Source: a virus (Duplodnaviria; Caudoviricetes). Taken from it: a DNA stretch of 64,000 nucleotides. The notes under the pieces were generated by a model, which was not told the DNA's origin, ran no database searches, and saw only the letters and a list, made by a program, of their open reading frames with translations. Position numbers and translations under genes: made by a program. Every line of letters starts with the position of its first letter. Position 1 is the first letter of the stretch. The stretch covers positions 8,723 to 72,722 of IMG/VR virus record IMGVR_UViG_3300033120_000925. One strand, written 5' to 3'. Below are positions 1 to 64,000 of the stretch, piece by piece.

Positions 1-195
1 AGAAAATCAATTCCAAAAATTGAATACTCTCCGGAGCTAAAACAGCGTCAAGTAGATTTACGTAAATTCCTCCGTTCGGTTCCGGAAATAAAATGGAAAG
101 AACTCCGCCCATTTGGGTTTGAAATAGATGTCGGAACAATTCCTGATTCCGCCGCCGAAGAATTCCTAAAAATAGCAAATTCTGTTAAAGTTTAG
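1..195 (+). CDS. 3' end of a hypothetical protein (runs off the window)
   Basis: Open frame 1 (RKSIPKIEYSPELK...ANSVKV) ending TAG 193-195. Confidence 0.6.
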   Translation, partial: RKSIPKIEYSPELKQRQVDLRKFLRSVPEIKWKELRPFGFEIDVGTIPDSAAEEFLKIANSVKV

Positions 196-320
196 CAAAA
201 TGCCATAAACCTAATTTATAACATAAAAAATAGGCTTTATGACAATTATCACTTTTTAATATGCTATAATACCTACATTTACTTTAATTAATTAATTAAC
301 CTAACCCCTAAAAATAAAAT

Positions 321-485
321 ATGTCAAAATTAAACATCGAACAGAAGAATTACATCAAAAGTCTTGACTCAAAAGAAGATCGTAAAGAAGTCAAAAAAGC
401 ATTCAAGAAATGCAATAAAGAAAAAGAAATTATCGACTCCGTGAAAGTTTTGAGGGAATTCTTCAAAAGTATATCTCCAAAATAA
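321..485 (+). CDS. small hypothetical protein (54 aa)
   Basis: ATG 321 after A-rich leader, MSKLNIEQKNYIK..., TAA 483-485 just before a terminator. Confidence 0.6.
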   Translation: MSKLNIEQKNYIKSLDSKEDRKEVKKAFKKCNKEKEIIDSVKVLREFFKSISPK

Positions 486-490
486 AATTA

Positions 491-520
491 AAAAGCCTCT
501 ACTTATTAGCAGAGGCTTTT
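491..520. terminator. bidirectional intrinsic terminator
   Basis: AAAAGCCTCT-N10-AGAGGCTTTT between convergent genes. Confidence 0.85.
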
Positions 521-523
521 CTT

Positions 524-51604: not shown

Positions 51605-51970
51605 CTAAAACTCTTTCTTAACCAAAAGAAAAAAATCATCTTTTATCTCACAATACCCTTTATCGTAAACAAAATAATACTTGTTTCCAGTTTTAGCCTC
51701 CAAAAAACTTGTAAAAAATTCAAAATCAAAACCTTTTTTCTTCAAAAGTTTACGTTCTACTTTTGGATTTTCGCATACATTTAATTCAGTCAAAATACGA
51801 TAATTTTTACGTAGGCGATTGTTTATATTCCTCACTAAATTTGTAGCGTCTTTGTTTTGACGGTTATTGTACGTATTCCGGCACTTGTTGGAGCAAAACA
51901 TCTTATCTTCCCTTCCAAAAATTTCTTCTCCACATTCGGCACAAAATCGCTTTTCTTTTATTGGTTCCAT
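51605..51970 (-). CDS. DUF2116-like zinc-ribbon protein
   Basis: CAECGEEIFGREDKMFCSNKCRNTYNN. Confidence 0.7.
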   Translation of the reverse strand: MEPIKEKRFCAECGEEIFGREDKMFCSNKCRNTYNNRQNKDATNLVRNINNRLRKNYRILTELNVCENPKVERKLLKKKGFDFEFFTSFLEAKTGNKYYFVYDKGYCEIKDDFFLLVKKEF

Positions 51971-53202
51971 TGTCGTTTCATTATTTCGGCATATTCTACC
52001 TTACTTGTTTTATTGTAGTGGTCTAATTGGGAGCTTTTTTTACTCCAGCCACAAATTGATTTTATCACGGCATCATCTACCTTGCCATAGTTATTCGTAG
52101 CAAAACTTCGGCGACAAACGTGTGACGAAATTAGTTTATATTTCTCGAAATACCCAACTTTTTTTCTTTTTAAAACTTTATCGAACAATTTACCGTAAAC
52201 CAAATTATCTATTTCGCATACTTGGCAAATGGTTTTAATGTGCTTGTTAAAATCCGAACTGCTTATTTTTTGGGGTAAATATCCAAAATTATCATTTAGT
52301 AATTTTTCTACTTGAAAATGAATCGGGATAACTACCTTAGCTTTTGTTTTTTGAGTTTTAATTGTAAAATTACCATCCTTTATATTATTTGCATCAAGTT
52401 TCAAAAAGTCACTCACACGAAGTCCTGTAAATAATCCCAAAATAAAGTTTTGCTTTGCAACGTTCAATTCTTCGTCATACGAAAAATCCTTGTCGATTAT
52501 CTTCTGGATTTCCTGCTCATTCAAATAAACTCCCTCAATATCATTTTCGGGATCGAAATAAATTCTTTCCTTAAATGCTTGACTTACTTCAAAATCCATT
52601 TCTGTAGCACGATTAAAAAAGAAGCGCAATCTACCTATGTTTCTTTCTATCGTAGAGTTTTGGTAGTTTTCGGTTTCCTGCCAATCGATAAATCCCTCCA
52701 AATCTTTTTTGGTATTGTTACGAAGCGTGATTTTCTCTCCTATTACTTTTTCGTATTCCACAAGAGTTTCGACGAATTTCTTGTATTGGTTCTTCGCCGG
52801 TTCTTCCATTTTCTTTTTGGCCGAAACTTTCCAGTCCGAGGAAAAATTTTCCAACCAATATGTAGCAAAGTCCGAAACGTAAATCGTATGTAATGGACTT
52901 ACCATCGAAATTTCCTCTTTCGGGCGCATAAATGTAGTTTTAATTACCTTTTGCAACCAAATCTTATCAATCAAAACTCCACGGCAAAAGTCTTTATTGT
53001 ATTGCTTTAAAATATCCGTTTTAAGCTCTTGTAAAGCAATAGTCACTTCATTATTCCCTACAACAGTTTCCGTCGCAGAAACCCATTCAGAATCCGTCAG
53101 CATCACGTTTATCGCTGCCGACACGTCCAACTTATGATGATAGAAGCGAACAGATAATTTCTTTATCGCCTTTGTTCCGTTTAATGTGAATTTGATATTC
53201 AT
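51958..53202 (-). CDS. int: tyrosine recombinase/integrase, Bacteroidota phage/MGE type
   Basis: Full catalytic set: TGLRVSD (R), KTQKT (K), SHVCRR (HxxR), CGWS (W), DHY (Y); arm-binding-like N-terminus. Confidence 0.95.
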   Translation of the reverse strand: MNIKFTLNGTKAIKKLSVRFYHHKLDVSAAINVMLTDSEWVSATETVVGNNEVTIALQELKTDILKQYNKDFCRGVLIDKIWLQKVIKTTFMRPKEEISMVSPLHTIYVSDFATYWLENFSSDWKVSAKKKMEEPAKNQYKKFVETLVEYEKVIGEKITLRNNTKKDLEGFIDWQETENYQNSTIERNIGRLRFFFNRATEMDFEVSQAFKERIYFDPENDIEGVYLNEQEIQKIIDKDFSYDEELNVAKQNFILGLFTGLRVSDFLKLDANNIKDGNFTIKTQKTKAKVVIPIHFQVEKLLNDNFGYLPQKISSSDFNKHIKTICQVCEIDNLVYGKLFDKVLKRKKVGYFEKYKLISSHVCRRSFATNNYGKVDDAVIKSICGWSKKSSQLDHYNKTSKVEYAEIMKRQWNQ

Positions 53203-53342: not shown

Positions 53343-53576
53343 ATGAAAGAAAAGATATTTATAGAGCTAACAGATGACCAAATAAATAAAGTCTTTGAAT
53401 CTCGACAACCAAAAATAATTGAGCCAATAACTTTTTCAATAACGGATGCGGCTAAAAAATTAGGTATAAGCAAAGCGCATATTTACATACTAATAAACTC
53501 CGGCGAGATTAAAAAAATTATAATTGGAAAATCGCCAAGAATTCACATAGACGAAATAAATAAATTTTTGTTATGA
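53343..53576 (+). CDS. excisionase-like HTH protein
   Basis: FSITDAAKKLGISKAHIYILINSGEIKKIIIGKSPRIHIDEINKFL; divergent from int. Confidence 0.8.
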   Translation: MKEKIFIELTDDQINKVFESRQPKIIEPITFSITDAAKKLGISKAHIYILINSGEIKKIIIGKSPRIHIDEINKFLL

Positions 53577-54298
53577 AAGATCAAGTAGAGGTTTGGAAGC
53601 CTATTCCTGGATATGAAGGAAAGTATGAGTTTAGTAATTTACATAATGTAAAATCATTAAGTAGATTTATTAAAAGAGGAAATGGTGGTTTTTGGTCAAA
53701 AGAAAAGATATTAAAGATTTTTTTAGAGGAAGGATATTATAAAGTAGGGTTATGCTTAAATGGAAAATCTAAAAGTTTTGGAATACATCAATTAGTTGCT
53801 ATGGAGTTTTTAAATCATACTCCCTGTGGGTTTGAATTAGTTGTAGAACATAAAAATCAAATCAGGACTGATAATAGAATTGAAAATTTAGAGATAATTA
53901 CTCAAAGGAAAAACGCAAATAAAAAGCATTTAAAAAGCAGTAGTAAATACACTGGGGTTTCGTGGCATAAAAAGAATAATAAATGGAGGTCGGCAATAGT
54001 TATCGAAGGAAAAGTAAAACATTTAGGATATTTTGAGATAGAGGAAGAAGCATCAGAATACTATGAAAACGCATTGAAAAATCATTTATCAGGATTACCT
54101 ATTAAAACTAAAAATGCAAATTTTAGTTCTAAATACGAAGGAGTTTCTTTAAGTAAAGCAGCTAAAAAATATATGGCAAGAATAACGATAAAAGGAAAAC
54201 AAATTTATTTAGGTAGTTTCAATACAGAATTAGAAGCTCATCTAAAATATCAAAATCAATATCGGGAAATCGCCGAGGATATGCAGGGCAGAAATTGA
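53573..54298 (+). CDS. NUMOD4-HNH-AP2 homing endonuclease
   Basis: EVWKPIPGYEGKYEFSN (NUMOD4), HQLVA...VEHKNQIRTDNRIENLE (HNH), two SSKYxGVS...LGxF AP2 domains. Confidence 0.9.
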   Translation: MKDQVEVWKPIPGYEGKYEFSNLHNVKSLSRFIKRGNGGFWSKEKILKIFLEEGYYKVGLCLNGKSKSFGIHQLVAMEFLNHTPCGFELVVEHKNQIRTDNRIENLEIITQRKNANKKHLKSSSKYTGVSWHKKNNKWRSAIVIEGKVKHLGYFEIEEEASEYYENALKNHLSGLPIKTKNANFSSKYEGVSLSKAAKKYMARITIKGKQIYLGSFNTELEAHLKYQNQYREIAEDMQGRN

Positions 54299-54332
54299 CA
54301 AGTTTTTACCCGCTCCTGAATCGTAGTATTCC

Positions 54333-54463
54333 TGATAACGTTTTGCGTGTATAAGAAGTGGCGGATTAGAACTCCAAAACTTTCAGAAAGCACGAAACTG
54401 AAATAGAAAAACAGAACTTAAATTAATAACAAAACTAACGCTGAAATGTAGCTGTTGTTACAG
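54333..54463 (+). repeat. attC-like site A (chimeric, arms do not pair)
   Basis: TGATAAC...GTTACAG; left arm resembles site D, right arm resembles site C. Confidence 0.6.
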
Positions 54464-54487
54464 GACGGCACTAAAATCAAATAAAAA

Positions 54488-54757
54488 ATGGGAACATTAA
54501 GAAACTTAAAAGGAACTTCTGTAGAAGAAATTGAATGTGAATTTATCACAAAACCATCTGAAATAAAAGATGTTTTAAAAAACGGAAAAGCCTGTACTGC
54601 TGCTGACAGCAATGGTGCGATTAATATATGGAAAGATGATAACGGATTAATTCGTTGTGAATCTATGGCGTATTATCGCTCTCTTGATACAAAAGAATTT
54701 GAAAATATTAAGGACGTAGAAAATTGGGCTAAAAAATGGCTTCGCAAGATAAAGTAA
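54488..54757 (+). CDS. cassette ORF, hypothetical
   Basis: Flanked by GTTACAGGAC / GTCCTGTAAC. Confidence 0.7.
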   Translation: MGTLRNLKGTSVEEIECEFITKPSEIKDVLKNGKACTAADSNGAINIWKDDNGLIRCESMAYYRSLDTKEFENIKDVENWAKKWLRKIK

Positions 54758-54773
54758 TGTTGCTCTCGCTGTC

Positions 54774-55007
54774 CTGTAACGGGCTCCGGCTTGTTCGTCG
54801 TTCCGAGAGGAGCTTGCTCCGAAGCGGAATGCGTACAAGCCGGTGATGGGGAAAAGGGGCGTTCCGCTCACCAAGGCGAAGCCGGAGCCCGATGGAGTGC
54901 AGCCCGGAGGGATGTACTCCATCGGTCTAGCTTGTAGCTGTATGCCAAGATAGAACGTGAATAGAAAGAAAATAGTCATAGCATATAGCTACAAGCGTAT
55001 GTTAGGG
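54774..55007 (+). repeat. attC-like site B containing a GC-rich multi-hairpin module
   Basis: CTGTAAC...GTTAGGG, 234 bp; nested stems; 76 nt (54777-54852) identical to 63925-64000. Confidence 0.7.
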
Positions 55008-55100
55008 TTCGTTGCGGATGATTAAAGAAGGTTTCATCGAGTACAAAAACGTCTCTCACGATTGAAAGATAAGGCGTTCCTTCATTTTTAAATTTATATT

Positions 55101-55445
55101 ATGAAATTAACAGATAAACAATTTAGGGTTTTAGAGTTTTTGATAAATAAAGGAAGAAATTATAATACTTCTGTTCACGGAACTATGCTGACTAAAATTA
55201 TCTATGATGAAGAAACTATTAAAAAATATTCTTTTGCTAGAACTGCTAAAATGGTAATTGACACAATGACTTTTTCTTATCTAGGAAAAATGTGTCGTGC
55301 AGATTTAATTGGCTCTGAATATCAAACTATTGGCGACTTGTCAAGTAGAACTAAAGGCTATTCATATTATTGTGGACATTATTGCACAAAAAAAGGCAAG
55401 GAAGCGTATGATGAATTTCTTTTGAAAACGAAAATAGAGCAATGA
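55101..55445 (+). CDS. cassette ORF, hypothetical (winged-helix-like)
   Basis: Stop abuts GAGCCCTAAC; LGKMCRADLI...CTKKGKEAY. Confidence 0.65.
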   Translation: MKLTDKQFRVLEFLINKGRNYNTSVHGTMLTKIIYDEETIKKYSFARTAKMVIDTMTFSYLGKMCRADLIGSEYQTIGDLSSRTKGYSYYCGHYCTKKGKEAYDEFLLKTKIEQ

Positions 55446-55446
55446 G

Positions 55447-55526
55447 CCCTAACGTTCTGCGGCTACAGTTTCGGCAGCCTATGTACAAAGTTGCTTTCGG
55501 CTGCTGAAATGTAGCCGTTGTTATGC
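55447..55526 (+). repeat. attC-like site C (short class, 80 bp)
   Basis: CCCTAAC; CGGCTACAGTTTCGGCAGCC / GGCTGCTGAAATGTAGCCG with one extra G; GTTATGC. Confidence 0.9.
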
Positions 55527-55569
55527 CTAGTACGGCAAAATAAAATATTAACAATAAATTAAAAGTAAA

Positions 55570-55815
55570 ATGATTAAAGTATTAAGACAAGAATCTTCTT
55601 TTTATAAAGAATTAGAAGCGTTTAACGCCTATATGGCAACAAGAAATATAGAAGTGCAAATGACACCCCACAACGGTATCATTTACAAAATTCAAGATAA
55701 ATATTATAAATATCTTCAAGATGGCGAATATCCAGAATCATTACCTCCTTTTTTAGATGGAAAATATGTTGAATGTGATTATTTTGGAAATACTGATTAC
55801 TACCAAGAATCGTAG
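55570..55815 (+). CDS. cassette ORF, hypothetical
   Basis: Stop TAG inside the AATCGTAGTATT end motif. Confidence 0.7.
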   Translation: MIKVLRQESSFYKELEAFNAYMATRNIEVQMTPHNGIIYKIQDKYYKYLQDGEYPESLPPFLDGKYVECDYFGNTDYYQES

Positions 55816-55821
55816 TATTAG

Positions 55822-55951
55822 GCATAACGTTTGCGTGTATGGTTAGTGCGGAAAAATAAGCCGAATCGCTCCATTCAAGACCGAGTAATCCAAGTACAGA
55901 CAGAACTTTAAAATAAACCTAATACCGCATTAACTATACAAGCTGTTAGCA
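55822..55951 (+). repeat. attC-like site D (130 bp)
   Basis: GCATAAC; TGTATGGTTAGTGCGG / CCGCATTAACTATACA; GTTAGCA. Confidence 0.85.
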
Positions 55952-55963
55952 GCAGTTAAATTT

Positions 55964-56170
55964 ATGAAAACAATTATCATCGAACAGGCGATTTATAAAG
56001 TAACAGATAGAGAATTTAATGTTATAAAAGCAATGCAACAAAAAATAAAAAATGAAGCTACAGATTATAAAGCGTGTTTTAAAGCAGAAGATGAACTTAA
56101 CGAGTATTTAGATGTAGCGAAAACTCTTTATAAATTCGTAGGAACGGTTGATTTTCATTGTCAGCGTTAA
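55964..56170 (+). CDS. cassette ORF, hypothetical
   Basis: Between paired cassette ends. Confidence 0.7.
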   Translation: MKTIIIEQAIYKVTDREFNVIKAMQQKIKNEATDYKACFKAEDELNEYLDVAKTLYKFVGTVDFHCQR

Positions 56171-56174
56171 TTGC

Positions 56175-56306
56175 TGCTAACGTTCTGGCACTACAACGGG
56201 TTTGGGGTTAAAAATGCGTAATCTTTCGGTTATGTCTAATAATTACAAGCACAAAACAATAATTCAGAAAGTCCAATGCCCAAATCCGTTGTAGTGGCTG
56301 TTATGC
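56175..56306 (+). repeat. attC-like site E (132 bp)
   Basis: TGCTAAC; CACTACAACGGGTTTGGG / CCCAAATCCGTTGTAGTG; GTTATGC. Confidence 0.9.
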
Positions 56307-56348
56307 GTTCGGCTTTTTAAAACTAAATATTAATCAAAAAATAATAAA

Positions 56349-56666
56349 ATGAATACGGAAAAACAAAAAGAATTTTTAGAGTTAAAGACTAAACTACTAA
56401 ATGAAATTGAATATCGAGAAGGTGTTTTAAGACAATTAAATTTCGATTCAAATAGAGAAAAAGGATTTGTTTCTACTTTTTTAAAAGGATTTTTAAAGCA
56501 CAAAAAACAAGCTCCTAATTTATTCTGGAAAGATGGCGAAACTTACGGAAGATATTTAATTGATGCTGATAAAGAATTACATAAAGATATTGCATTAGCT
56601 TTTGAAAAATCAATTGAAAAACTAAAACGTGATTATAACGATTCGGTTCTGGAAGCTGACGCATAA
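56349..56666 (+). CDS. cassette ORF, hypothetical
   Basis: TAA stop lies inside GCATAAC. Confidence 0.7.
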   Translation: MNTEKQKEFLELKTKLLNEIEYREGVLRQLNFDSNREKGFVSTFLKGFLKHKKQAPNLFWKDGETYGRYLIDADKELHKDIALAFEKSIEKLKRDYNDSVLEADA

Positions 56667-56794
56667 CGGCGGAGGCTTTGTGATGTTGCCTTGAAAACAC
56701 ACCTAAAACTTTAAATTAAAAACAAATGAATCAAGAAAAAAACAATGTTTCAATTAATAACCAATCAGGCAATAGCACAAAACCTATGTTACAA
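56661..56794 (+). repeat. attC-like site F (134 bp)
   Basis: GCATAAC; AGGCTTTGTGATGTTGCCT / AGGCAATAGCACAAAACCT; GTTACAA. Confidence 0.8.
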
Positions 56795-57046
56795 GACGTT
56801 ACTCTTGTGAAAACGGATTTTAAACTTACTGGATTAGGGAGAAAAAAATCAATGACTTGCGAGCCATTAAATAACCAAAACATATTCTGGCCCAAAGTTG
56901 GATTAAGCCAAGACAGATTTGATGCGTTATGGGATTATTTTAAAGGAAATAAGCCAATGCAAATGATTGCTGAAATTGAACACGAAGGACTTTATGAAGA
57001 CGGAACCCCTATTAACGGAAATGTTGTAGGTGTACGTGATTTGTAA
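56726..57046 (+). CDS. cassette ORF starting in the site F loop
   Basis: ATG 56726 in the loop; a second ATG overlaps the GTTA core (ATG TTA). Confidence 0.65.
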   Translation: MNQEKNNVSINNQSGNSTKPMLQDVTLVKTDFKLTGLGRKKSMTCEPLNNQNIFWPKVGLSQDRFDALWDYFKGNKPMQMIAEIEHEGLYEDGTPINGNVVGVRDL

Positions 57047-57050
57047 TGTC

Positions 57051-57127
57051 TTGTAACGTTTGTCGCTTGTACTAGGCGGCTATGCGGTTGCGTATATTCT
57101 GCCGCTTAGTACAAACGATTGTTAGGA
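57051..57127 (+). repeat. attC-like site G (short class, 77 bp)
   Basis: TTGTAAC; TCGCTTGTACTAGGCGGC / GCCGCTTAGTACAAACGA; GTTAGGA. Confidence 0.9.
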
Positions 57128-57164
57128 GAATACCACTAAACACTAATTTAAAAACATATTTAAA

Positions 57165-57545
57165 ATGACAAAACAAGAAAAAATTAAAAAAGAATGGGGT
57201 AGTTTTTACACAGATAAAGTAAGCCCTGATGGATGGTTAAATATTCATCCAAAAAATTATTCAAATGATGAATTGTTTGATAGATTAAAATTTAATTCAG
57301 AAAGAGATTCAATTCGTCCTAAAACATTACAAGGAGTAGAACACAATCACGGTTGGACTAAAATTGAAAAAGAATCTGATTTACCTACAATTGGAGAATA
57401 TTATACGATTGCAAGTTTTGATAATTTAATCGTAGAAAGAGAGTTTCCGCACCCTAAATTTTCTTTAGAATTTAATAAAGAATGGTGGTTAAAATATATT
57501 ACCCACTATCAACAAATTATTAAGCCAGAGAAGCCACTATACTAG
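57165..57545 (+). CDS. cassette ORF, phage-type hypothetical
   Basis: GWTKIEKESDLP...ITHYQQI (DUF551-like ends). Confidence 0.7.
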   Translation: MTKQEKIKKEWGSFYTDKVSPDGWLNIHPKNYSNDELFDRLKFNSERDSIRPKTLQGVEHNHGWTKIEKESDLPTIGEYYTIASFDNLIVEREFPHPKFSLEFNKEWWLKYITHYQQIIKPEKPLY

Positions 57546-57553
57546 GCGGTTTC

Positions 57554-57675
57554 TCCTAACGTTACATCGCTTGGCTTAGTGCCGAGTTATGAAAACAATA
57601 ATTTCTAATTAAAAATAAACGTGATGAAAAACGATAAAAACGAAAATAAGGCATTGAGCCAAACGAGTGTTAGCA
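57554..57675 (+). repeat. attC-like site H (122 bp)
   Basis: TCCTAAC; TCGCTTGGCTTAGTGCC / GGCATTGAGCCAAACGA; GTTAGCA. Confidence 0.85.
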
Positions 57676-58046
57676 GTAGTGTTTTTTCTTTTGATGATTT
57701 TGATAAACTTATGAATACTAAAGAAGAAATACAAGAACTAATTAATATGCCTAAAGATGAATTTGTAGAAAAAACTAAAAAACTTCTTAACTACATATCA
57801 GACCAATATTCTAAAGGTTGGAAATCAAAAAGACTAACAGAAGAAGAATATCCTGAAGAAAGTGTTTGCGATAAATGTACAGGATGCGGAACTTTTAAAT
57901 TTAATGGAGAAGACGATGAATGTGTTGCAGACCGAGAAGAGGGCGAATGTTATGTTAGATATTTTGATGCTGAGGAATTTGGATTAGAAATTGAAGCAAC
58001 TATGGATGATGTTTATGAACTTCTTTTTATAGACAATATTGAGTAA
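57621..58046 (+). CDS. cassette ORF starting in the site H loop, Cys-containing
   Basis: Leader KALSQTSVSSS read through the hairpin arm; CDKCTGC motif. Confidence 0.65.
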   Translation: MMKNDKNENKALSQTSVSSSVFSFDDFDKLMNTKEEIQELINMPKDEFVEKTKKLLNYISDQYSKGWKSKRLTEEEYPEESVCDKCTGCGTFKFNGEDDECVADREEGECYVRYFDAEEFGLEIEATMDDVYELLFIDNIE

Positions 58047-58052
58047 CATTAC

Positions 58053-58183
58053 TGCTAACGCTTTGCTACTACAAGCAGTAGCGGACAAATAAAGACTAAT
58101 TCTCGGATAATTATAAATTATCCAAACACAAAACAATAATAACCAAAGCCAGATTAAGCTATTGATTGTAGTAGCTGTTATAT
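58053..58183 (+). repeat. attC-like site I (131 bp)
   Basis: TGCTAAC; GCTACTACAAGCAGTAGC / GCTATTGATTGTAGTAGC; GTTATAT. Confidence 0.85.
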
Positions 58184-58220
58184 TCTCGGCTTTTTTTTAC
58201 TAACAAATTAAATTAAAAAA

Positions 58221-58400
58221 ATGGAAATAGAAGATATTGAAGTAATAGTAATGATTGTTCAATTCAAAGATGGTTCTGCGCATCAAGTTTTGACATCAAA
58301 AGAAAATAAAAAAATAGCCTTGCAAATAATCGCAAGTGCTGATGGAAAATTAACGATTGATAAAGAACTCGCTCCTGTTGTATTCGAGTATGCAGAGTAG
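58221..58400 (+). CDS. cassette ORF (59 aa)
   Basis: MEIEDIEVIVMIVQFKDGSAHQVL...FEYAE, below the track cutoff. Confidence 0.65.
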   Translation: MEIEDIEVIVMIVQFKDGSAHQVLTSKENKKIALQIIASADGKLTIDKELAPVVFEYAE

Positions 58401-58429
58401 ATTTTGACGCAAAGTTGCTAGAAGCTGGA

Positions 58430-58436
58430 ATATAAC
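58430..58436 (+). repeat. half site J (left core only, hairpin missing)
   Basis: GAATATAAC complements the cassette start GTTATATTC at 58177; no hairpin or GTTA follows. Confidence 0.6.
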
Positions 58437-58468
58437 TACTTGCTTTGCGCATAAAATGTATTACAAAG

Positions 58469-58648
58469 ATGAAACAATACACAAAAACAAAGGTAATTCG
58501 CATTACAGAAACACAACACCAAACACTGGTAAAAATGCAATCTTACAATGTTGATGTAGCCGATTTTATCCGAAACGCAATATCTGAAAAAATAAAAAGG
58601 GAGTATAAGGACTTGATGCCGAAAGTTAAAAATGATTGCCCTTTCTAA
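58469..58648 (+). CDS. ribbon-helix-helix-like protein
   Basis: KTKVIRITETQHQTL...VDVADFIRNAISEKI. Confidence 0.6.
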   Translation: MKQYTKTKVIRITETQHQTLVKMQSYNVDVADFIRNAISEKIKREYKDLMPKVKNDCPF

Positions 58649-58701
58649 AACTCGGCAACTTAAACCATGCTAAAATACCAATTATTAAAACTAAAAATAA
58701 A

Positions 58702-58950
58702 ATGGAAAAAGAAATTAAAGAATTGATTAGAAACAATGGGAATGATTTAATGCGTTGGACTGAAAAAAGAGATAATTTAAGAAATAAAATTAAATTTTGC
58801 TCGGATCATAAATTCGAAGAGGAAGTAAGGATGTCACTTTCAAAATTAGAATCTATGGAAGGTGTTATTTATGATTATGAGCAAATGATTAAAGACTTGA
58901 AAATAATCTTAAAATCTTACCAAAATGATATTGCTGCGACTGAATCGTAG
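58702..58950 (+). CDS. cassette ORF, coiled coil
   Basis: Stop TAG inside the AATCGTAGTATT end motif. Confidence 0.65.
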   Translation: MEKEIKELIRNNGNDLMRWTEKRDNLRNKIKFCSDHKFEEEVRMSLSKLESMEGVIYDYEQMIKDLKIILKSYQNDIAATES

Positions 58951-58956
58951 TATTAG

Positions 58957-59033
58957 GCATAACGTTAAAACTATACTGCGGTTGCCTATGCGGTTTAGTA
59001 GATTCGGCAACTGCTGTATAGTGATTGTTACCA
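58957..59033 (+). repeat. attC-like site K (short class, 77 bp)
   Basis: GCATAAC; CTATACTGCGGTTGCC / GGCAACTGCTGTATAG; GTTACCA. Confidence 0.85.
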
Positions 59034-59076
59034 GAAGTACGGCAATTATAATTTAACAATTTAAAACAATAATAAA

Positions 59077-59586
59077 ATGAAAAACATACACATATTACCA
59101 ACAAAAAACCAAAGTAGGTTGTATTTTGATGTAGTAACAAAAAAATTACTATTACAAGAAAGATTAAGTCTTAATGCGACTTGTTTTCCAATTGAAAAAA
59201 GAAACATCTACATCACTAATGATGAAGAAATTAAAGATGAAGATTGGACATTAAAATTTCCTTTCCAAAAGGAAATTTTCAAAAATATTGAAGTAAGTAT
59301 TAATGAATATGTAAAAAGAGCAAAACTACATACATACCCATATAATTGGTGTCAAAAAATTATCCTTACTACTGACCCTGATTTAATCAAAGATGGTGTA
59401 CAAGCTATTGATGATGAGTTCTTAGAGTGGTTTGTTAAGAATCCAAGTTGTGAGGAAGTTGAAGTTAAGTGGGTAAAAACACCTGATGGTATATTTTATA
59501 CAAATGATGTTCCTTATGGATGTTATAAAATCATCATTCCAAAAGAAATTGATACTTTAGAATTAGGACAAATTAAAATCTACTAA
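59077..59586 (+). CDS. cassette ORF, Bacteroidota-phage-type hypothetical
   Basis: First of three genes in one cassette. Confidence 0.75.
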   Translation: MKNIHILPTKNQSRLYFDVVTKKLLLQERLSLNATCFPIEKRNIYITNDEEIKDEDWTLKFPFQKEIFKNIEVSINEYVKRAKLHTYPYNWCQKIILTTDPDLIKDGVQAIDDEFLEWFVKNPSCEEVEVKWVKTPDGIFYTNDVPYGCYKIIIPKEIDTLELGQIKIY

Positions 59587-59588
59587 AT

Positions 59589-59915
59589 ATGAAAGAAAAA
59601 ACAATTAACATTCCAATTTACTTTGGAAAATTAAAAATCATTACCACAGATTCGTGGAGCAAAGTAAATCTACTTTATAACACAAAAATTGATTCAAAAC
59701 TTTATGATGCGGTTGTTTTTGAAATAAAAAACAATGATGAATACATAGTTGCAATCAAAAAAGTAGAATGGTCAATAATAGCTCACGAAGTTGTGCATAT
59801 TGTAAATGCAATATTCTTAAAATGCGGTGTTGAACTTGACAGACAAAACGACGAACCGCAAGCCTATTTAACAGGATGGATTATAAATGAAATAGATAAA
59901 TTTTTAAATAAATAA
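59589..59915 (+). CDS. HExxH zincin-like phage protein
   Basis: IAHEVVH...DEPQAYL. Confidence 0.6.
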   Translation: MKEKTINIPIYFGKLKIITTDSWSKVNLLYNTKIDSKLYDAVVFEIKNNDEYIVAIKKVEWSIIAHEVVHIVNAIFLKCGVELDRQNDEPQAYLTGWIINEIDKFLNK

Positions 59916-59917
59916 TT

Positions 59918-60436
59918 ATGACACCAAGAAGAAATAAATTATGGTTAAATACACCCGCAGAATTAGCGATTTTCAATGCTATTCAAGAAGTTGAAACAGT
60001 AGGTGCTGATGTTAGATTGACAGAAATTACAAATATGCTTGTAAAAGCAAAAGACTTATTATCTGATTATATTGACAATACTAAAGATTTGCAAGGAACT
60101 GAATTAGCTAAAAAAACTTTGTTTAAAATTACAGATAAATTACCCGACGGGGTTCTTTGGGGAAAAGCAAGAGAATATTCAAAACAATTTACCTCTTTCG
60201 AAAAACCAGTTCAAAGTGAAATTGCAATGAGTGAAGCACAAGACCATTATTATAGAGGAATGATTGATTTAAGAGATATGATTGAACAACAGAATAATGA
60301 AGCCGTAGAAATGCTTGACGGTTTAGTTTCTGATGTAGGGAATCTACTTTGTGATGTTGCTGATTTAGATTTTGAATGGCAACAAGCAGGATATTATGAA
60401 ACTGCTAAAAAATGGTTATTAGAAAACAAATCGTAG
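59918..60436 (+). CDS. cassette ORF, hypothetical
   Basis: Stop TAG inside the AATCGTAGTATT end motif. Confidence 0.7.
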   Translation: MTPRRNKLWLNTPAELAIFNAIQEVETVGADVRLTEITNMLVKAKDLLSDYIDNTKDLQGTELAKKTLFKITDKLPDGVLWGKAREYSKQFTSFEKPVQSEIAMSEAQDHYYRGMIDLRDMIEQQNNEAVEMLDGLVSDVGNLLCDVADLDFEWQQAGYYETAKKWLLENKS

Positions 60437-60442
60437 TATTTC

Positions 60443-60573
60443 TGGTAACGTTGAAGCATTGTTGCAGTTGTGTATTAGGACTGCCAAATTATCGATTTAA
60501 AACTAACCAACCAAGTACAAAAACAATTATTAATCAAGCCAATTGCCACAATTGCTACAATGCATTGTTATAT
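60443..60573 (+). repeat. attC-like site L (131 bp)
   Basis: TGGTAAC; GCATTGTTGCAGTTGTG / CACAATTGCTACAATGC; GTTATAT. Confidence 0.85.
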
Positions 60574-60597
60574 GCTGGCTTTTTAACACTAAAAATT

Positions 60598-60864
60598 ATG
60601 AAAAACTTTAAACAATTCAGAAGAAGTCAAATTGCAGAAATGCGAGAAGTAACAGAAAATGATATTAATGTATTTAAGAATCACGGATTTATACATATAT
60701 CAGAATATCCATTTGGTTTTAACATATCTATTTCTGATGCAGACAAAAACAATGGAAGTCCTAAAATTGGAGATATGATTGCAAGGAATCCAAAAGACTA
60801 TTCAGACCAATGGTTAGTAGCTGAACAATATTTCAAAGATAATTTTGAGAAGTTAGTTGAGTAA
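60598..60864 (+). CDS. cassette ORF, phage-type hypothetical
   Basis: MKNFKQFRRSQIAEMR...GDMIARNPKDYSDQWLVAEQYFKDNF. Confidence 0.75.
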   Translation: MKNFKQFRRSQIAEMREVTENDINVFKNHGFIHISEYPFGFNISISDADKNNGSPKIGDMIARNPKDYSDQWLVAEQYFKDNFEKLVE

Positions 60865-60870
60865 GCTATC

Positions 60871-60993
60871 ATATAACGTTTCTCGGCTTTGTTTAGTGCC
60901 GACTTAGAAAAACTAAACTTTCAACTTAAATAATATATCTTATGAAAACAGAAAATAACGAAAACCAGGCATTGAACAAAACCGATGTTAGCA
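60871..60993 (+). repeat. attC-like site M (123 bp)
   Basis: ATATAAC; TCGGCTTTGTTTAGTGCC / GGCATTGAACAAAACCGA; GTTAGCA. Confidence 0.85.
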
Positions 60994-61178
60994 GCAGTGC
61001 GAGGTATATAATTATTGACGAAAGCCTTTCAGGACATTGCTGTTTTGAATTTACAATAATTGACACAGCAGCAGGTAAGGAAGATTATGGAGATTACTGG
61101 AAACGCTCAATGTGTGAAACATTTTATAGAGCAGAAGCAGAAATTATATGTGACGCTCTCAATAAGCATTGTTGCTAA
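60942..61178 (+). CDS. cassette ORF starting in the site M loop
   Basis: Leader QALNKTDVSSS; TAA stop inside the next TGCTAAC. Confidence 0.7.
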   Translation: MKTENNENQALNKTDVSSSARYIIIDESLSGHCCFEFTIIDTAAGKEDYGDYWKRSMCETFYRAEAEIICDALNKHCC

Positions 61179-61251
61179 CGTTCCGCAGCTACACGATGCC
61201 AGCCTATGCGGTTGCTATATTTCGGCTGGTATTGTGTAACTGCTGTTAGTA
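61173..61251 (+). repeat. attC-like site N (short class, 79 bp)
   Basis: TGCTAAC; GCAGCTACACGATGCCAGCC / GGCTGGTATTGTGTAACTGC; GTTAGTA. Confidence 0.9.
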
Positions 61252-61297
61252 GCTGTTTTTTTATTTTACATTTATTTTAAAAATATTTGTAATTTTA

Positions 61298-61328
61298 TTT
61301 GGTAGTTACAAAATTAGTCGTATATTTG
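61298..61328 (+). promoter_or_regulatory. host-type promoter inside a cassette
   Basis: TTTG 61298-61301, N19, TATATTTG 61321-61328. Confidence 0.75.
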
Positions 61329-61358
61329 TAAAAGAAATAACAACTAAAACAAATCAAA

Positions 61359-61556
61359 ATGAAAACATCTACTTATACTTACGAATTTGCAAATGGAACT
61401 TTTACTATCACAAAAGGAATAAAAACTAAATTTGATTGGTTTGTTTCTGTAAAGTTAAATGATGGTTTTATATCATTGAATCAAAATATTTTCTTAACAA
61501 AAAAAGAAGCGAAAAAAACAACTGAAAACTTACTAAACAAATACAAATTACTATGA
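61359..61556 (+). CDS. cassette ORF, hypothetical
   Basis: First gene after the internal promoter. Confidence 0.65.
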   Translation: MKTSTYTYEFANGTFTITKGIKTKFDWFVSVKLNDGFISLNQNIFLTKKEAKKTTENLLNKYKLL

Positions 61557-61906
61557 ATGAAAATTTTTATAAACAAGCTGTAAATAACTTTGAATTTAGA
61601 GCGAAAAGAATAAATAACGACATTGTTGTTTATGGACTACTTTCTTTTTATAATAATGAATTAGTTATAATTACAGAAGACAATAATGCATATCATATAA
61701 AACCTGATACGATTCAAGAATATACACGATTGAAAGATAAAAACAAAAATAAAGTTTTTGTTGGAGATAAAATAAAGCATTTTGAAGGACGTGAATTTGA
61801 AGTTGTTTTTTCAGATATAAAAGGAATTTTATTAAGTTCAATAAATGACAATGGAGAATATGCTAACGGTTATCCTTATTGGATTGATGATTGCGAAATA
61901 ATTTAG
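61553..61906 (+). CDS. YopX-family phage protein
   Basis: FEFRAK...VYG...IKPDTIQEYTRLKDKNKNKVFVGDKI. Confidence 0.75.
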   Translation: MNENFYKQAVNNFEFRAKRINNDIVVYGLLSFYNNELVIITEDNNAYHIKPDTIQEYTRLKDKNKNKVFVGDKIKHFEGREFEVVFSDIKGILLSSINDNGEYANGYPYWIDDCEII

Positions 61907-61911
61907 TAAAT

Positions 61912-62079
61912 ATGGAACGAAAAAATATTATAGTTTTCATTCAAAACGACCGAATAGAAACTTATGGAAATCTAAAAAAGTGTTGTGAGTTTGAAAATCT
62001 AAAATACCACACTTTAGCACGTTTAAAATTCCCAATTCGGATAAACGATGTAGTTATACACAAAACGTTGTTTAAATAG
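61912..62079 (+). CDS. small putative DNA-binding protein
   Basis: ETYGNLKKCCEFENLKYHTLARLKFP. Confidence 0.55.
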   Translation: MERKNIIVFIQNDRIETYGNLKKCCEFENLKYHTLARLKFPIRINDVVIHKTLFK

Positions 62080-62080
62080 C

Positions 62081-62213
62081 TACTGACGTATGGTGCTATA
62101 TTTCAGTAGCGGAAACACAAAACAATGCTTCGGTTGATGACCGAAAATAACAAGTACAAACAAATTATTGAATTTAACCCGATAACCGCTATTGAATATA
62201 GCAGTTGTTATAA
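62081..62213 (+). repeat. attC-like site O (133 bp, TGAC variant core)
   Basis: TACTGAC; GCTATATTTCAGTAGCGG / CCGCTATTGAATATAGC; GTTATAA. Confidence 0.8.
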
Positions 62214-62225
62214 GTAGCTTTTATT

Positions 62226-62507
62226 ATGATAACAGAATTTAATTTTACAAAAGAATGGCAAGAAGACAAACACAATTGGGTCGTTTTTTATGTTGAGAAT
62301 TTCCCAATAGATTTAAAAGTAGGTGATGAAATATGGATAAGTGATTTTAAACATCTATTTAAAAAAGGCGAATATTATTGTCCAGAAAATGAAATTTCAA
62401 ATGAATTTTTAGAAGAGTTTGATATTCCAGAAGGAAAAGTAACACATTTAAGGTATGGTTTACAAGACGGAAAAGTAGTTAAGATTTTAGAACTTTTGGC
62501 TACATAG
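62226..62507 (+). CDS. cassette ORF, hypothetical
   Basis: Between paired cassette ends. Confidence 0.7.
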   Translation: MITEFNFTKEWQEDKHNWVVFYVENFPIDLKVGDEIWISDFKHLFKKGEYYCPENEISNEFLEEFDIPEGKVTHLRYGLQDGKVVKILELLAT

Positions 62508-62521
62508 TTTGGTAAAGTTAC

Positions 62522-62653
62522 TTATAACGTTATCTCGCTTGGCGAGGTTGCTGACTTCGGAAAAATAAAACTTCAACTTAAAAATAAATATGATGCGAAA
62601 CGTGAACGTGAATAAACAACAAAATCAGCAATCTTGCCAAACGAGTGTTAGCG
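62522..62653 (+). repeat. attC-like site P (132 bp)
   Basis: TTATAAC; TCGCTTGGCGAGGTTGCTGA / TCAGCAATCTTGCCAAACGA; GTTAGCG. Confidence 0.9.
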
Positions 62654-62790
62654 GTTCGGTTACGGATGAGAACAATCGTAATTATGCTAAAAAAATATTG
62701 ATAAAATATATTCAAAGCGAAAGATTGCAATATAAACAAAAACAAGGAGATTATTCAATTGACGAATTATTAACAGAATTAGAAAAATAA
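62590..62790 (+). CDS. cassette ORF starting in the site P loop
   Basis: Leader QQSCQTSVSGS. Confidence 0.6.
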   Translation: MMRNVNVNKQQNQQSCQTSVSGSVTDENNRNYAKKILIKYIQSERLQYKQKQGDYSIDELLTELEK

Positions 62791-62792
62791 GT

Positions 62793-63362
62793 ATGGGAAG
62801 CATTAAAGGACAAAAACACAATCCTGAATTAGAAGGAAAATATGCTCACATAAACCCGAATGATGTGGTTTTTACGCCTGATTGGTTGGCGAAACAAATA
62901 GTATCAATGTTTGATATTAAAGGAAAAGTATTAGAACCGTGTAAAGGTGAGGGTGCGTTTTTAAATCACTTACCGAAAGATACAGAATGGTGTGAAATTG
63001 CAGAAGGTATAAACTATTATGATTATAATGAAAAAGTAGATTGGATTGTAACCAACCCACCTTATTCGGATTATAACAGGTTTCTTGAACATTCATTTGC
63101 ATTGGCTGATAATATTGTTTTATTAGTTCCTGTTGCGAAAATGTTTAAAAGTATGGGAACAATGAGCGATATATTTAATTATGGCGGATTTGTTGAAATA
63201 CACACATTGCCAAGTAGTAAAGCAGGATTTCCTTTTGGATTTCCAAGTGCGGTTTACTACTTAAAAAGGGGTTACAAAGGAGAAACTAAAATAAAAATGT
63301 TAGACGGAATTTCTTTTGAAAAGAAGAAGAAAAAAGCAAAAGTTTCTACTTTATTCGAGTAG
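62793..63362 (+). CDS. DNA N6-adenine (amino) methyltransferase, orphan
   Basis: DVVFTPDWLA, VLEPCKGEGAF (motif I), IVTNPPY (motif IV). Confidence 0.9.
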   Translation: MGSIKGQKHNPELEGKYAHINPNDVVFTPDWLAKQIVSMFDIKGKVLEPCKGEGAFLNHLPKDTEWCEIAEGINYYDYNEKVDWIVTNPPYSDYNRFLEHSFALADNIVLLVPVAKMFKSMGTMSDIFNYGGFVEIHTLPSSKAGFPFGFPSAVYYLKRGYKGETKIKMLDGISFEKKKKKAKVSTLFE

Positions 63363-63375
63363 TTGTTTAACTGAC

Positions 63376-63507
63376 TGCTAACGCCCTGTCGCTTGGCGAT
63401 GTGGCAAAAAAGTACACCCGAATTTTCGGATTATTACAAGTGCGTAAGGCACAAAACCAACTATAAATTAAACCTAAACTTGCCATATTGCCAAACGGCT
63501 GTTATGT
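63376..63507 (+). repeat. attC-like site Q (132 bp)
   Basis: TGCTAAC; GTCGCTTGGCGATGTGGCAA / TTGCCATATTGCCAAACGGC; GTTATGT. Confidence 0.9.
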
Positions 63508-63533
63508 GAGGTTGCGGGTAACTAAAACAAAGC

Positions 63534-63914
63534 GTGATGGAAAATAATTTATGCTCAAAATTCATAAAAAACTCATTAAGTGAAAACTATTGTGATAATT
63601 GCGGTAGAGAAGAATGGCATCATCCAAAGGAAAATGATTATAAAATGATTTTCTATAATGAGGGAATAAAAAGAGCTTCACAACATAATTTTAATCAAGC
63701 CGAAGCAGGTTATAATGCAAAATGGTTTAAAAGAGGAGCTATATTTGGGCGTATAGAAACACTAAAAGAAAATGAAGAATTATTAAACGCCCTATATCAA
63801 CTTGTTTCGTTAAAGAAATGGAAAGAAGAATTTGGAAAAGATGAATGGTATTTAGAAAAACAACCATTAGCTTGGAAAAATGCTGAAAAAGTTCTTATGG
63901 AATTTGAAATTTAG
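63534..63914 (+). CDS. cassette ORF with N-terminal Cys/His motif
   Basis: CSKF...CDNCGREEWHH. Confidence 0.7.
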   Translation: MMENNLCSKFIKNSLSENYCDNCGREEWHHPKENDYKMIFYNEGIKRASQHNFNQAEAGYNAKWFKRGAIFGRIETLKENEELLNALYQLVSLKKWKEEFGKDEWYLEKQPLAWKNAEKVLMEFEI

Positions 63915-63921
63915 CAATCTC

Positions 63922-64000
63922 ACATAACGGGCTCCGGCTTGTTCGTCGTTCCGAGAGGAGCTTGCTCCGAAGCGGAATGCGTACAAGCCGGTGATGGGGA
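63922..64000 (+). repeat. attC-like site R (GC-rich type, truncated by the window edge)
   Basis: ACATAAC then 72 nt identical to 54781-54852. Confidence 0.8.

Follow-up and report, generated by a model that had tools for sequence, protein, structure and literature searches.

Organization of the array

Between 54.3 and 64 kb of the window, the 64,000-nucleotide stretch of phage DNA analysed here, lie 16 complete sites of the form TAAC-hairpin-GTTA and two TAAC-only half sites (58436 and 63928). Together these account for all 18 cores listed by a sequence-only reading of the same DNA. The complete sites span 71-228 nt (n = 16), and folding predicts an imperfect hairpin at every one of them, with about 65 nt (short class) or about 120 nt (long class) between TAAC and GTTA. 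The array holds 17 cassettes, each made up of a structured site and the one to three ORFs downstream of it (Table 1). Four ORFs of the window start inside hairpins, and stop codons do fall within TAAC at 56664 and 61176, as had been read earlier. Scanning both strands of the whole 72,722-bp phage contig for TAAC, 45-260 nt, GTTA and a stable stem returned no site outside 55.4-63.5 kb of the window, by criteria that preselect hairpins and overlook degenerate cores since they demand exact TAAC/GTTA and a stem.

The ends of each cassette carry a distinctive signature, in that the stretch of 6-10 nt following GTTA is reverse-complementary to the 6-10 nt that precede the next TAAC. Over 8 nt, taken past GTTA at one end and, reverse-complemented, ahead of the following TAAC at the other, cognate ends match at a mean of 6.5/8 (range 5-7, 16 cassettes), against 2.0/8 for the left and right cores of one site and 2.4/8 for non-cognate cassette ends (256 pairs). 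The complementarity first noticed by eye is thus borne out. The left arm of cassette 1, TTCCTGA, has no partner anywhere in the genome, and this cassette is therefore taken as the distal end of the array. At the other end, neither a right arm nor GTTA was found in genome positions 1-300 beyond the terminal half site. The GC-rich insert that begins there is a second copy of the one in cassette 2, divided between the contig ends (window 63929-64000 and genome 1-76).

Table 1. Coordinates of the array and of the adjoining integrase gene
Feature	Position	Strand	Description
Integrase	51958..53202	-	414-aa tyrosine integrase (Phage_integrase + SAM_5) adjoining the array; context only
Cassette 1	54336..54779	+	Outermost complete site: TAAC 54336-54339, hairpin, GTTA 54457-54460; ORF 54488-54757
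Cassette 2	54777..55452	+	228-nt site, TAAC 54777-54780 to GTTA 55001-55004, holding GC-rich insert; ORF 55101-55445
GC-rich insert	54781..54925	+	145 nt, structured, immediately 3' of the TAAC core of the cassette 2 site
Cassette 3	55450..55827	+	Short-class site 55450-55523; ORF 55570-55815
Cassette 4	55825..56180	+	Long-class site 55825-55948; ORF 55964-56170
Cassette 5	56178..56666	+	Site 56178-56303; ORF 56349-56666, stop codon in TAAC
Cassette 6	56664..57056	+	Site 56664-56791; ORF 56726-57046, start within hairpin
Cassette 7	57054..57559	+	Short site 57054-57124; ORF 57165-57545 (phrog_27445)
Cassette 8	57557..58058	+	Site 57557-57672; ORF 57621-58046, start within hairpin
Cassette 9	58056..58436	+	Site 58056-58180; ORF 58221-58400; ends in half site GAATATAAC (58428-58436), no hairpin after
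Hairpin-less segment	58437..58962	+	ORFs 58469-58648 and 58636-58950; 3' end GAATCGTAGTATTAGGCATAAC duplicates 55807-55828
Cassette 11	58960..60448	+	Short site 58960-59030; ORFs 59077-59586, 59589-59915 (HExxH, phrog_1365), 59918-60436
Cassette 12	60446..60876	+	Site 60446-60570; ORF 60598-60864
Cassette 13	60874..61178	+	Site 60874-60990; ORF 60942-61178, start in hairpin (first own ATG only near its 3' end), stop codon in TAAC
Cassette 14	61176..62086	+	Short site 61176-61248; ORFs 61359-61556, 61553-61906 (weakly YopX-like), 61891-62079; ends in degenerate core, TGAC instead of TAAC (62084-62087)
Cassette 15	62084..62527	+	Site 62084-62210; ORF 62226-62507
Cassette 16	62525..63381	+	Site 62525-62650; ORF 62590-62790 (start in hairpin) and orphan DNA methyltransferase 62793-63362 (phrog_799)
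Cassette 17	63379..63928	+	Site 63379-63504; ORF 63534-63914; end CTCACATAAC complementary to GTTATGTGAG at 63501
Terminal half site	63925..64000	+	TAAC, then second GC-rich insert interrupted by contig end

The cargo had been described as phage-type, which holds for the methyltransferase (phrog_799, 3.8e-28). Less remains of the other assignments: the YopX-like ORF scores under the Pfam cut-off, the sole match of the HExxH ORF is a PHROG of unknown function, and the ORF called RHH has no family match.

The same arrays in other phages

Sites of this type recur, along with the end signature, in 88 other phage loci, which contribute 274 further cassettes and include the cultured Flavobacterium phages vB_FspS_snusmum6-1 and FPSV-D15. 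The ends of these 274 distinct cassettes match at 4.84/6 nt compared with 2.01 for shuffled partners, and 210 of them match at 5/6 nt or better. Compensatory changes were seen in 11 of the 17 stem pairs when 55 short sites were compared. Flavobacterium columnare (CP197485.1) has a complete element of this type in a prophage.

A small recombinase and an attI-like junction

The integrase encoded next to the array, which had been named earlier for a test of excision, is of a generic lysogeny type and only 22% identical to the recombinase associated with the arrays of relatives. That recombinase is a Xer/IntI-like tyrosine recombinase of 266-268 aa, encoded at the 3' end of the arrays. Its relatives are found on 289 viral contigs, and co-oriented sites lie directly upstream of the gene in 44 of the 47 loci with at least 3 kb of upstream sequence, while sites of any kind lie downstream in only 5/71. 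An alignment of four members, three from phages plus the Lutibacter homologue, shows the catalytic residues R, K, H, R, H and Y without variation. Against the integron-integrase model TIGR02249 the small recombinase matches in two pieces, skipping model positions 181-246, and it has no IntI-specific insertion.

In 42 of 43 loci examined the last cassette closes with an x'TAAC of its own, matching at 4 nt or more (5 or more in 40 loci). In 33 of those 42 loci a conserved sequence takes the place of the hairpin, some 52 nt ahead of the recombinase ATG; the resulting junction, x'TAAC|TAYTATATGTA, resembles an attI site. Judged by gene position and junction sequence, the small recombinase probably exchanges cassettes, though its main task could be a different one, such as resolution of genome multimers. 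In the window phage we found no integron integrase, no recombinase of the array family and no attI-like site. An enzyme would therefore be needed in trans, and for the same reason the array may be a fossil.

Cassette polarity and the probable point of crossover

Five Baltic Flavobacterium phages differ from each other by whole cassettes, in line with the earlier view of the region as a cassette platform on whose cores site-specific recombination has acted, and the units gained or lost consist of a hairpin and its downstream ORF. Window positions 60448-60878 are 90.6% identical to L050:11088-11519, a shared block that runs exactly from TAAC to TAAC between unrelated flanks. Likewise, the ORF body of cassette 5 is 95% identical to L236:7252-7630, and the matching block stops at TAAC. 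Of 362 distinct sites, 292 fold better as the coding strand (p = 1e-38). Taken together, the sister-phage gains and losses, the TAAC-to-TAAC block and the strand-biased folding suggest a crossover at TAA|C on the coding strand. A cassette would then be a hairpin plus the ORF downstream of it, the mirror image of the canonical ORF plus attC. Conserved G.T wobbles are found both at the core, where G5-T72 occurs in 55/55 short sites, and at the arms' outer end.

Junctions between relatives had been expected to fall at TAAC/GTTA. Ends of shared blocks are indeed enriched about 10-fold at cores, and right ends favour TAAC over GTTA (11 at TAAC and 2 at GTTA, with a chance level of 3.5% per core type), but left ends are mixed (7 at TAAC, 6 at GTTA) and 19 of 32 ends lie off cores. 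Because left ends are mixed and informative pairs in the linkage test are few, the other strand may instead be the one exchanged, or hairpins alone may be replaced.

Alternative explanations

Could the array be a canonical attC cluster from a host chromosomal integron, served by a host IntI with the usual polarity (ORF, then its own attC, crossover at G|TT)? The invariant AAC/GTT triplets of the cores and the complementary ends form the classic cassette signature, and small attC clusters without an integrase have already been published for phages. In addition, a 362-aa recombinase of Lutibacter sp. B2, whose best solved relative is IntI4 (2.4e-43), adjoins two cassettes with similar sites. This enzyme, however, likewise has no IntI insertion, and no protein above the TIGR02249 cut-off was found in the window phage or in five Flavobacteriaceae genomes. 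Integrons are almost absent from Bacteroidetes according to IntegronFinder 2.0. The present arrays are frequent in phages and seldom seen among the bacterial loci examined. Units and shared blocks stop at TAAC, not past the downstream hairpin, and the only one of six phage sites on which IntI1 failed, that of Polaribacter phage P12002L, is of the present type (Qi et al. 2023, Front Microbiol, PMC9892861). A canonical cluster served by a host IntI appears unlikely.

We regard as very unlikely a regulatory role for the hairpins (as terminators or as the promoter-stem-loops known from T4-type phages) combined with shuffling of the genes by homologous recombination between repeats. Hairpins do stand between co-oriented genes, some contain start codons and conserved A-rich tracts, hairpin families are common to unrelated phages with up to 100% identity (the cassette 7 site equals G009:30039-30111 between unrelated flanks), and the off-core block ends fit such exchange. 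Yet homologous exchange explains neither the variable complementary arms, seen in 16/16 cassettes here and widely elsewhere, nor a hairpin-less x'TAAC junction at fixed distance from a recombinase gene, nor the enrichment of block ends at cores. It is hardly credible that the array is host chromosome past the end of a prophage, or that the assembly falsely joined two sequences at the repeated GC-rich element. The contig end does fall within the repeat of a record that IMG/VR classes as linear, and the array is closely preceded by genes for an integrase and an excisionase-like protein. Against this, the two contig ends combined restore the GC-rich element, and phage genes (exonuclease, HNH) continue past the presumed circular junction. 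Arrays of this type also occur within the genomes of plaque-purified phages and within contigs that bear direct terminal repeats, and cargo matches phage protein families. With terminase, portal and virion genes on a virus record of 96% CheckV completeness, the array belongs to the phage genome.

Relation to known systems

No paper describing this system was found in the literature searched. The sequence-only reading knew of none characterised in a phage; phage attC clusters have in fact been published, but only small ones. Qi et al. 2023 (PMC9892861) described attC-like sites and integrase-less attC clusters in virulent and temperate phages, P12002L included, with 17 clusters in 10,705 phage genomes, some of just two sites. 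Orphan methyltransferases are frequent cargo there, as attC-type sites in phages and such a methyltransferase are found here. The text and supplement examined name no Flavobacterium phage, and a dedicated phage recombinase, an attI-like junction and reversed polarity are not reported there.

With integrons and CALINs (Cury et al. 2016, IntegronFinder) the arrays share short, mostly promoter-less, co-oriented cassettes, inverse cores (...AAC / GTT...) flanking an imperfect hairpin formed by single-stranded DNA, core arms that are specific to each cassette and would re-pair in the circle and, in relatives, a recombinase gene with a non-hairpin primary site at one array end. They differ in residing in phages of a phylum with almost no integrons by IntegronFinder, and in their small recombinase without the IntI-specific insertion. 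Furthermore, the probable TAA|C crossover lies on the coding strand, each ORF stands downstream of its own site and is read towards the recombinase gene, and hairpins can encode a start codon and N-terminus.

Xer-type recombination acts on folded single-stranded DNA in CTX phage integration, and Xer sites flank the pdif modules of Acinetobacter plasmids. These systems likewise combine a simple Xer-like tyrosine recombinase without arm-binding domain with modules bounded by recombination sites. Unlike them, the present arrays do not have 28-bp duplex sites of the dif type; their sites are long hairpins whose arms are specific to each cassette, and the recombinase of relatives is element-encoded and adjoins the array.

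Proposed mechanism

With a probability of roughly 0.75, we propose that the accessory region of this temperate Flavobacteriaceae phage contains, at 54.3-64 kb of the window, an integron-like array whose 17 mobile cassettes are exchanged at TAA|C by a small tyrosine recombinase. We infer the enzyme, the strand, a circular intermediate and any present-day activity in the window phage. In the excised circle the complementary arms would pair and lengthen the core stem, and the recombinase would swap strands at TAA|C on the folded coding strand, which corresponds to the "bottom" strand of canonical attC. The hairpin would move with its downstream ORF, for which it can supply the translation start, and the x'TAAC|TAYTATATGTA junction of relatives would act as attI. 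The window phage would have lost the recombinase and attI-like site or never possessed them, making its array the equivalent of an attC cluster without integron integrase. Rearrangement would then depend on a recombinase from elsewhere, whether a co-infecting phage, a prophage or the host provides it in trans.

Cassette sites in the window

Sixteen complete TAAC-hairpin-GTTA sites and two half sites that have only the TAAC lie between short ORFs, in the same orientation as these ORFs, and the 18 sites proposed by the sequence-only reading are thus confirmed far beyond chance. Every complete site folds into an imperfect hairpin. That reading had also claimed that the two ends of each cassette are reverse complements while the cores of one site match poorly, which the counts bear out: for cognate ends, the 8 nt after GTTA (variable arm x) and the reverse complement of those before the next TAAC (x') agree at 5-7 of 8 positions (mean 6.5), against 2.0/8 for the cores within one site and 2.4/8 for 256 non-cognate pairs. 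On both strands of the other 62 kb of the contig, at the same threshold, the scanner found zero sites outside the array; it requires exact TAAC and GTTA cores and a stable stem, and core invariance is thus built into the search.

An attC site consists of inverse cores (RYYYAAC/GTTRRRY) around an imperfect hairpin, and the window-type sites have this form, although the R/Y consensus beside the cores is followed only loosely, TAAC being preceded by A or C and GTTA followed by T or G. The complementary cassette ends place the cassette boundary inside the core, and the sites have a conserved C.A mismatch and an asymmetric spacer. RNAalifold gave no structure for a mixed-length alignment of 15 window sites because the arms were misaligned. 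Covariation was tested on a length-homogeneous alignment of 55 short sites (the short sites of the window and 51 from other loci), in which 11 of 17 stem pairs have compensatory changes on both sides. Rfam scans of the sites and of the GC-rich insert described below matched no family, neither at the gathering score nor with E allowed to rise to 5.

The loop of the short sites (columns 29-55 of their alignment, A4; GCCTATGCGGTTGCGTA.ATTCGGC) is more conserved than the stems, across many unrelated contigs, which suggests a putative protein-binding site. In four cassette ends a shared AATCGTAGTATT lies ahead of the variable arm and its TAAC; over 22 nt, two of these ends are identical.

Coordinates of features of the window phage (window positions unless marked genome, which refers to the whole record)
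Feature	Coordinates	Strand	Remark
Tyrosine integrase, 414 aa	51958-53202	-	sole PF00589 protein of the window genome; SAM_5 domain
HNH homing-endonuclease gene, array flank	53573-54298	+
HNH homing-endonuclease gene, array flank	genome 492-1019	-
GC-rich structured element, 145-150 nt	54781-54925		directly 3' of TAAC core
GC-rich structured element, 145-150 nt	63929-64000 and genome 1-76		directly 3' of TAAC core
Cassette ends with shared AATCGTAGTATT	54320-54339; 55807-55828; 58942-58963; 60430-60449
Duplicated cassette end	55807-55828 = 58942-58963
Half site	58436
ORFs beginning within a hairpin	56726; 57621; 60942; 62590		start positions
ORF without its own ATG until near its 3' end	60942-61178
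Cassette shared with contig L050	60448-60878		L050: 11088-11519
DNA methyltransferase ORF	62793-63362

Related arrays in other phages

Over 88 loci, which are phylogenetically non-independent (recombinases 49-100% identical to the query, cargo hardly overlapping), 362 distinct sites were collected, whose length distribution has one peak at 70-89 nt and another at 120-139 nt. A T stands 7 nt before TAAC in 93% of them. The ends of 274 distinct non-window cassettes from these loci agree at 4.84 of 6 nt, compared with 2.01 after partner shuffling, and the cargo is highly diverse: clustered with a threshold of 85% nucleotide identity, 298 cassette bodies form 279 clusters. The loop pattern of the short sites matched 56 IMG/VR contigs, about 30 of which carry 2-9 scanner sites of the same two length classes.

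Part of the window array resembles 77 Flavobacterium and 2 Polaribacter phage records. Among cultured phages, vB_FspS_snusmum6-1 has 8 sites and FPSV-D15 has 5, with complementary cassette ends in both. The window and its relatives have site families and the end signature in common; one window site is 100% identical to a site of another locus, G009, and a whole cassette is common to the window and contig L050. Polaribacter phage P12002L gave zero scanner matches at default settings; its sites are shorter and were read by eye. A Flavobacterium columnare prophage (CP197485.1, 1227983-1248786) combines five sites, an attI-like junction and a 267-aa recombinase. It resembles F. psychrophilum phage FPSV-D15 and represents a cultured system.

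An array-associated recombinase and an attI-like junction

Integrons carry beside the array an IntI with a specific additional domain (TIGR02249/intI_Cterm), which is absent here: a TIGR02249 search of the whole phage contig returned zero matches even at E = 10. The 414-aa integrase of the window phage reaches no more than about 40-47 bits against Xer models, and a search for related loci with it found no relatives. Among 25 array-bearing viral contigs, 22 have no tyrosine recombinase, and the other three encode an enzyme of 266-268 aa. It is 22% identical to the window integrase, and G009 carries both genes adjacent. The enzyme aligns to TIGR02249 only at positions 2-180 and 247-312, well under the cut-off; since the middle of the model is skipped, the IntI-specific insertion is missing from it. 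Among proteins of solved structure, XerA-like proteins and IntI4 are its best relatives.

A profile search found relatives of this enzyme in at least 289 viral contigs, and at least 120 protein clusters of 267-268 aa (at least 69% identity) carry PF13495 and PF00589. Among the 47 loci with at least 3 kb 5' of the recombinase gene, 44 have co-oriented sites directly upstream of it, and 39 have at least two; sites downstream of the gene occur in 5 of 71 loci. The last cassette ends in its own x'TAAC in 42 of 43 recombinase loci examined (4 or more nt match, and in 40 loci 5 or more do). In 33 of the 42 no hairpin comes next; the TAAC runs instead into a conserved TAYTATATGTA, and the recombinase ATG lies about 52 nt further on. 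This hairpin-less junction is the likeness, in flavobacterial phages, of the attI-cassette junction of integrons. From the position of the gene and the sequence of the junction, we infer that the 266-268-aa recombinase acts in cassette exchange.

An 'integrase' 35% identical to this enzyme is found in records of cultured North Sea phages, namely Polaribacter phages Freya_10 and Leef_1 and Cellulophaga phage Ingeline. About 55 nt 5' of it lies GCTAAC with a C-rich (A/G)CCCCTATA box, and no clear hairpin array was seen at these loci. From Freya_1 to Freya_10 the annotated start of the 'integrase' varies from 80 to 4177, which may reflect only where circular records were opened.

In bacterial genomes a 17-base pattern gave mostly chance matches (about 760 expected, an estimate), and only a few Flavobacteriaceae loci looked real; the bacterial contexts were mixed, and the search of the 'family' of Lutibacter spanned 21 genomes. 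Lutibacter sp. B2 encodes a 362-aa recombinase homologue, 44-46% identical to the array-associated enzyme, which has IntI4 as its best solved relative, lacks the insertion and adjoins two cassettes with similar sites (L185, L191, L126). These sites are about 57 nt long, and a second copy of the recombinase is interrupted by a stop codon. Two tiny contigs with phage-type arrays in an 'Erysipelotrichaceae' MAG (L131, L132) are probably mis-binned.

Polarity and crossover

Five Baltic Flavobacterium siphophages have a common backbone and differ by whole cassettes. Where cassette E, or G together with F, is missing, the hairpin that precedes the absent ORF has gone with it and the one that follows is kept; the mobile unit is thus a hairpin with its downstream ORF, bounded by TAAC. 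The cassette shared by the window and L050 is 90.6% identical from TAAC to TAAC, with both flanks unrelated. It had been proposed to compare relatives for changes of cassette order with junctions exactly at TAAC/GTTA. Differences by whole cassettes were found, and over all arrays the right ends of shared blocks favour TAAC (11, against 2 at GTTA) while the left ends are divided (7 at TAAC, 6 at GTTA; chance 3.5% per core type). The comparison of hairpin-ORF linkage comprises 13 informative pairs only. Of the 362 sites, 292 fold more stably as the coding strand than as its complement (p = 1e-38), and wobble G.T pairs that are conserved on this strand would be A.C mismatches on the opposite one.

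Taken together, the gained and lost units, the shared blocks, the strand-biased folding and the terminal junction point to a crossover on the coding strand between TAA and C of the left-hand core. Canonical polarity, with the ORF before its own attC and the crossover between G and TT of the right-hand core, does not fit these observations. In the terms of a canonical integron, the phage coding strand corresponds to the 'bottom' strand and the recombinase end to the attI end, with all ORFs reversed. Crossover at this position, which would place hairpin and ORF in one cassette, would explain why four window ORFs begin within a hairpin and read through GTTA. The sites of these four form one hairpin subfamily: each supplies the start codon and about 20 N-terminal residues, alike among the four (MK.N.N...L..T.VS.S), from which the reading frame runs on into the cassette ORF.

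State and cargo of the window array

Neither a member of the 266-268-aa recombinase family, at the 3' end of the array or elsewhere in the genome, nor an attI-like junction accompanies the window array: a profile built from 33 such junctions had no significant nhmmer match in the genome. Nowhere in the genome is there a partner for the left-most core arm, and the right end runs from x'TAAC through the GC-rich insert into phage DNA. A cluster of attC sites lacking an integron integrase (CALIN) comprises at least two attC in a row with no IntI nearby, as do the 16 sites here, provided that they count as attC. Having no recombinase and no attI-like sequence, the window array is the counterpart of such a cluster. 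The half site and the duplicated cassette end suggest that it was rearranged in the past.

Each observed copy of the GC-rich element stands directly after TAAC; the window phage has two, and other viral contigs have at least three (L306, L308, L309). In two genomes it coincides with contig breaks. An ordinary long site in L309 has a 5' arm equal to the first ~22 nt of the element, which could be a small mobile element aiming at the crossover point. The window spans positions 8723-72722 of a single virus record of 72,722 bp. The record is classed as linear in IMG/VR, with a CheckV completeness of 96%. Its end stops within the GC-rich element, the rest of which lies at the contig start; the genome is thus probably circular or permuted, with the assembly interrupted at the repeat.

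The phage has genes for the large terminase subunit, the portal and virion proteins, and also for a chaperonin, a C5 methyltransferase, an excisionase-like HTH protein and an HNH-AP2 endonuclease; the first 9 kb of the genome hold phage exonucleases and another HNH gene. Its closest cultured relatives are Flavobacterium and Cellulophaga phages. HNH homing-endonuclease genes lie at both flanks of the array, the one beyond the right end in the place that the attI-like site and the recombinase occupy in related phages. Most cassette ORFs have no Pfam family. The phage-type cargo that had been claimed holds for the methyltransferase, which PHROGs supports at 3.8e-28; the YopX match is below the Pfam cut-off; four other cassette ORFs match PHROGs of unknown function.

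Discussion

The usual view takes integrons for devices of bacteria whose hallmark is IntI with its extra domain. A far-reaching reading of the present arrays, to which we give a probability of roughly 60%, is that Flavobacteriaceae phages own a self-contained integron whose parts are hairpins resembling attC, a site resembling attI and a 267-aa recombinase without the IntI insertion. Under the mirror polarity each cassette would carry its own expression signals, and accessory genes such as anti-restriction methyltransferases would be moved among otherwise unrelated phages. The window array, as a recombinase-less member, would be rearranged only through a recombinase supplied in trans.

The remark in the sequence-only reading that it was aware of no such system characterised in a phage needs qualification, as phage attC clusters have been published. 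Qi et al. 2023 (PMC9892861) ran IntegronFinder over 10,705 phage genomes and reported 3 complete integrons, 1 integrase that has no cassettes and 17 clusters of attC (at least 2 sites each) that have no integrase. One of these clusters is that of Polaribacter phage P12002L. Its P12002L_attC1 belongs to the window site type, and of the six sites tested with IntI1 it alone did not recombine. A full-text search for literature on flavobacterial phages with integrons, or on viral contigs with attC, found nothing beyond that study. Integrons have been reported as near-absent from Bacteroidota: for Bacteroidetes, IntegronFinder 2.0 gives only integrases without cassettes from its earlier survey, and one complete integron, in Salinibacter. 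The insertion is incompletely conserved in an 'integron-like' subgroup (Smyshlyaev et al. 2021).

Among Baltic Flavobacterium phages, Nilsson et al. 2020 (PMC7077304) tied one methyltransferase gene, present in some phages and absent from others, to plating efficiency on a second host, with hairpins and cassettes unmentioned. The methyltransferase genes examined in these phages sit within cassette arrays, and with the link to plating efficiency, cassette turnover may thus directly affect host range.

A folded single-strand site and the cassette logic are common in flavobacterial phages, with a recombinase that has no extra domain and with polarity reversed. If the recombinase is active, the definition of an integron would be widened, a simpler enzyme would be available for the study of hairpin recognition, and the swapping of small accessory genes among flavobacterial phages would be accounted for. 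The 'integrase' annotated in several of these phages, and taken as a sign of lysogeny, may be something else.
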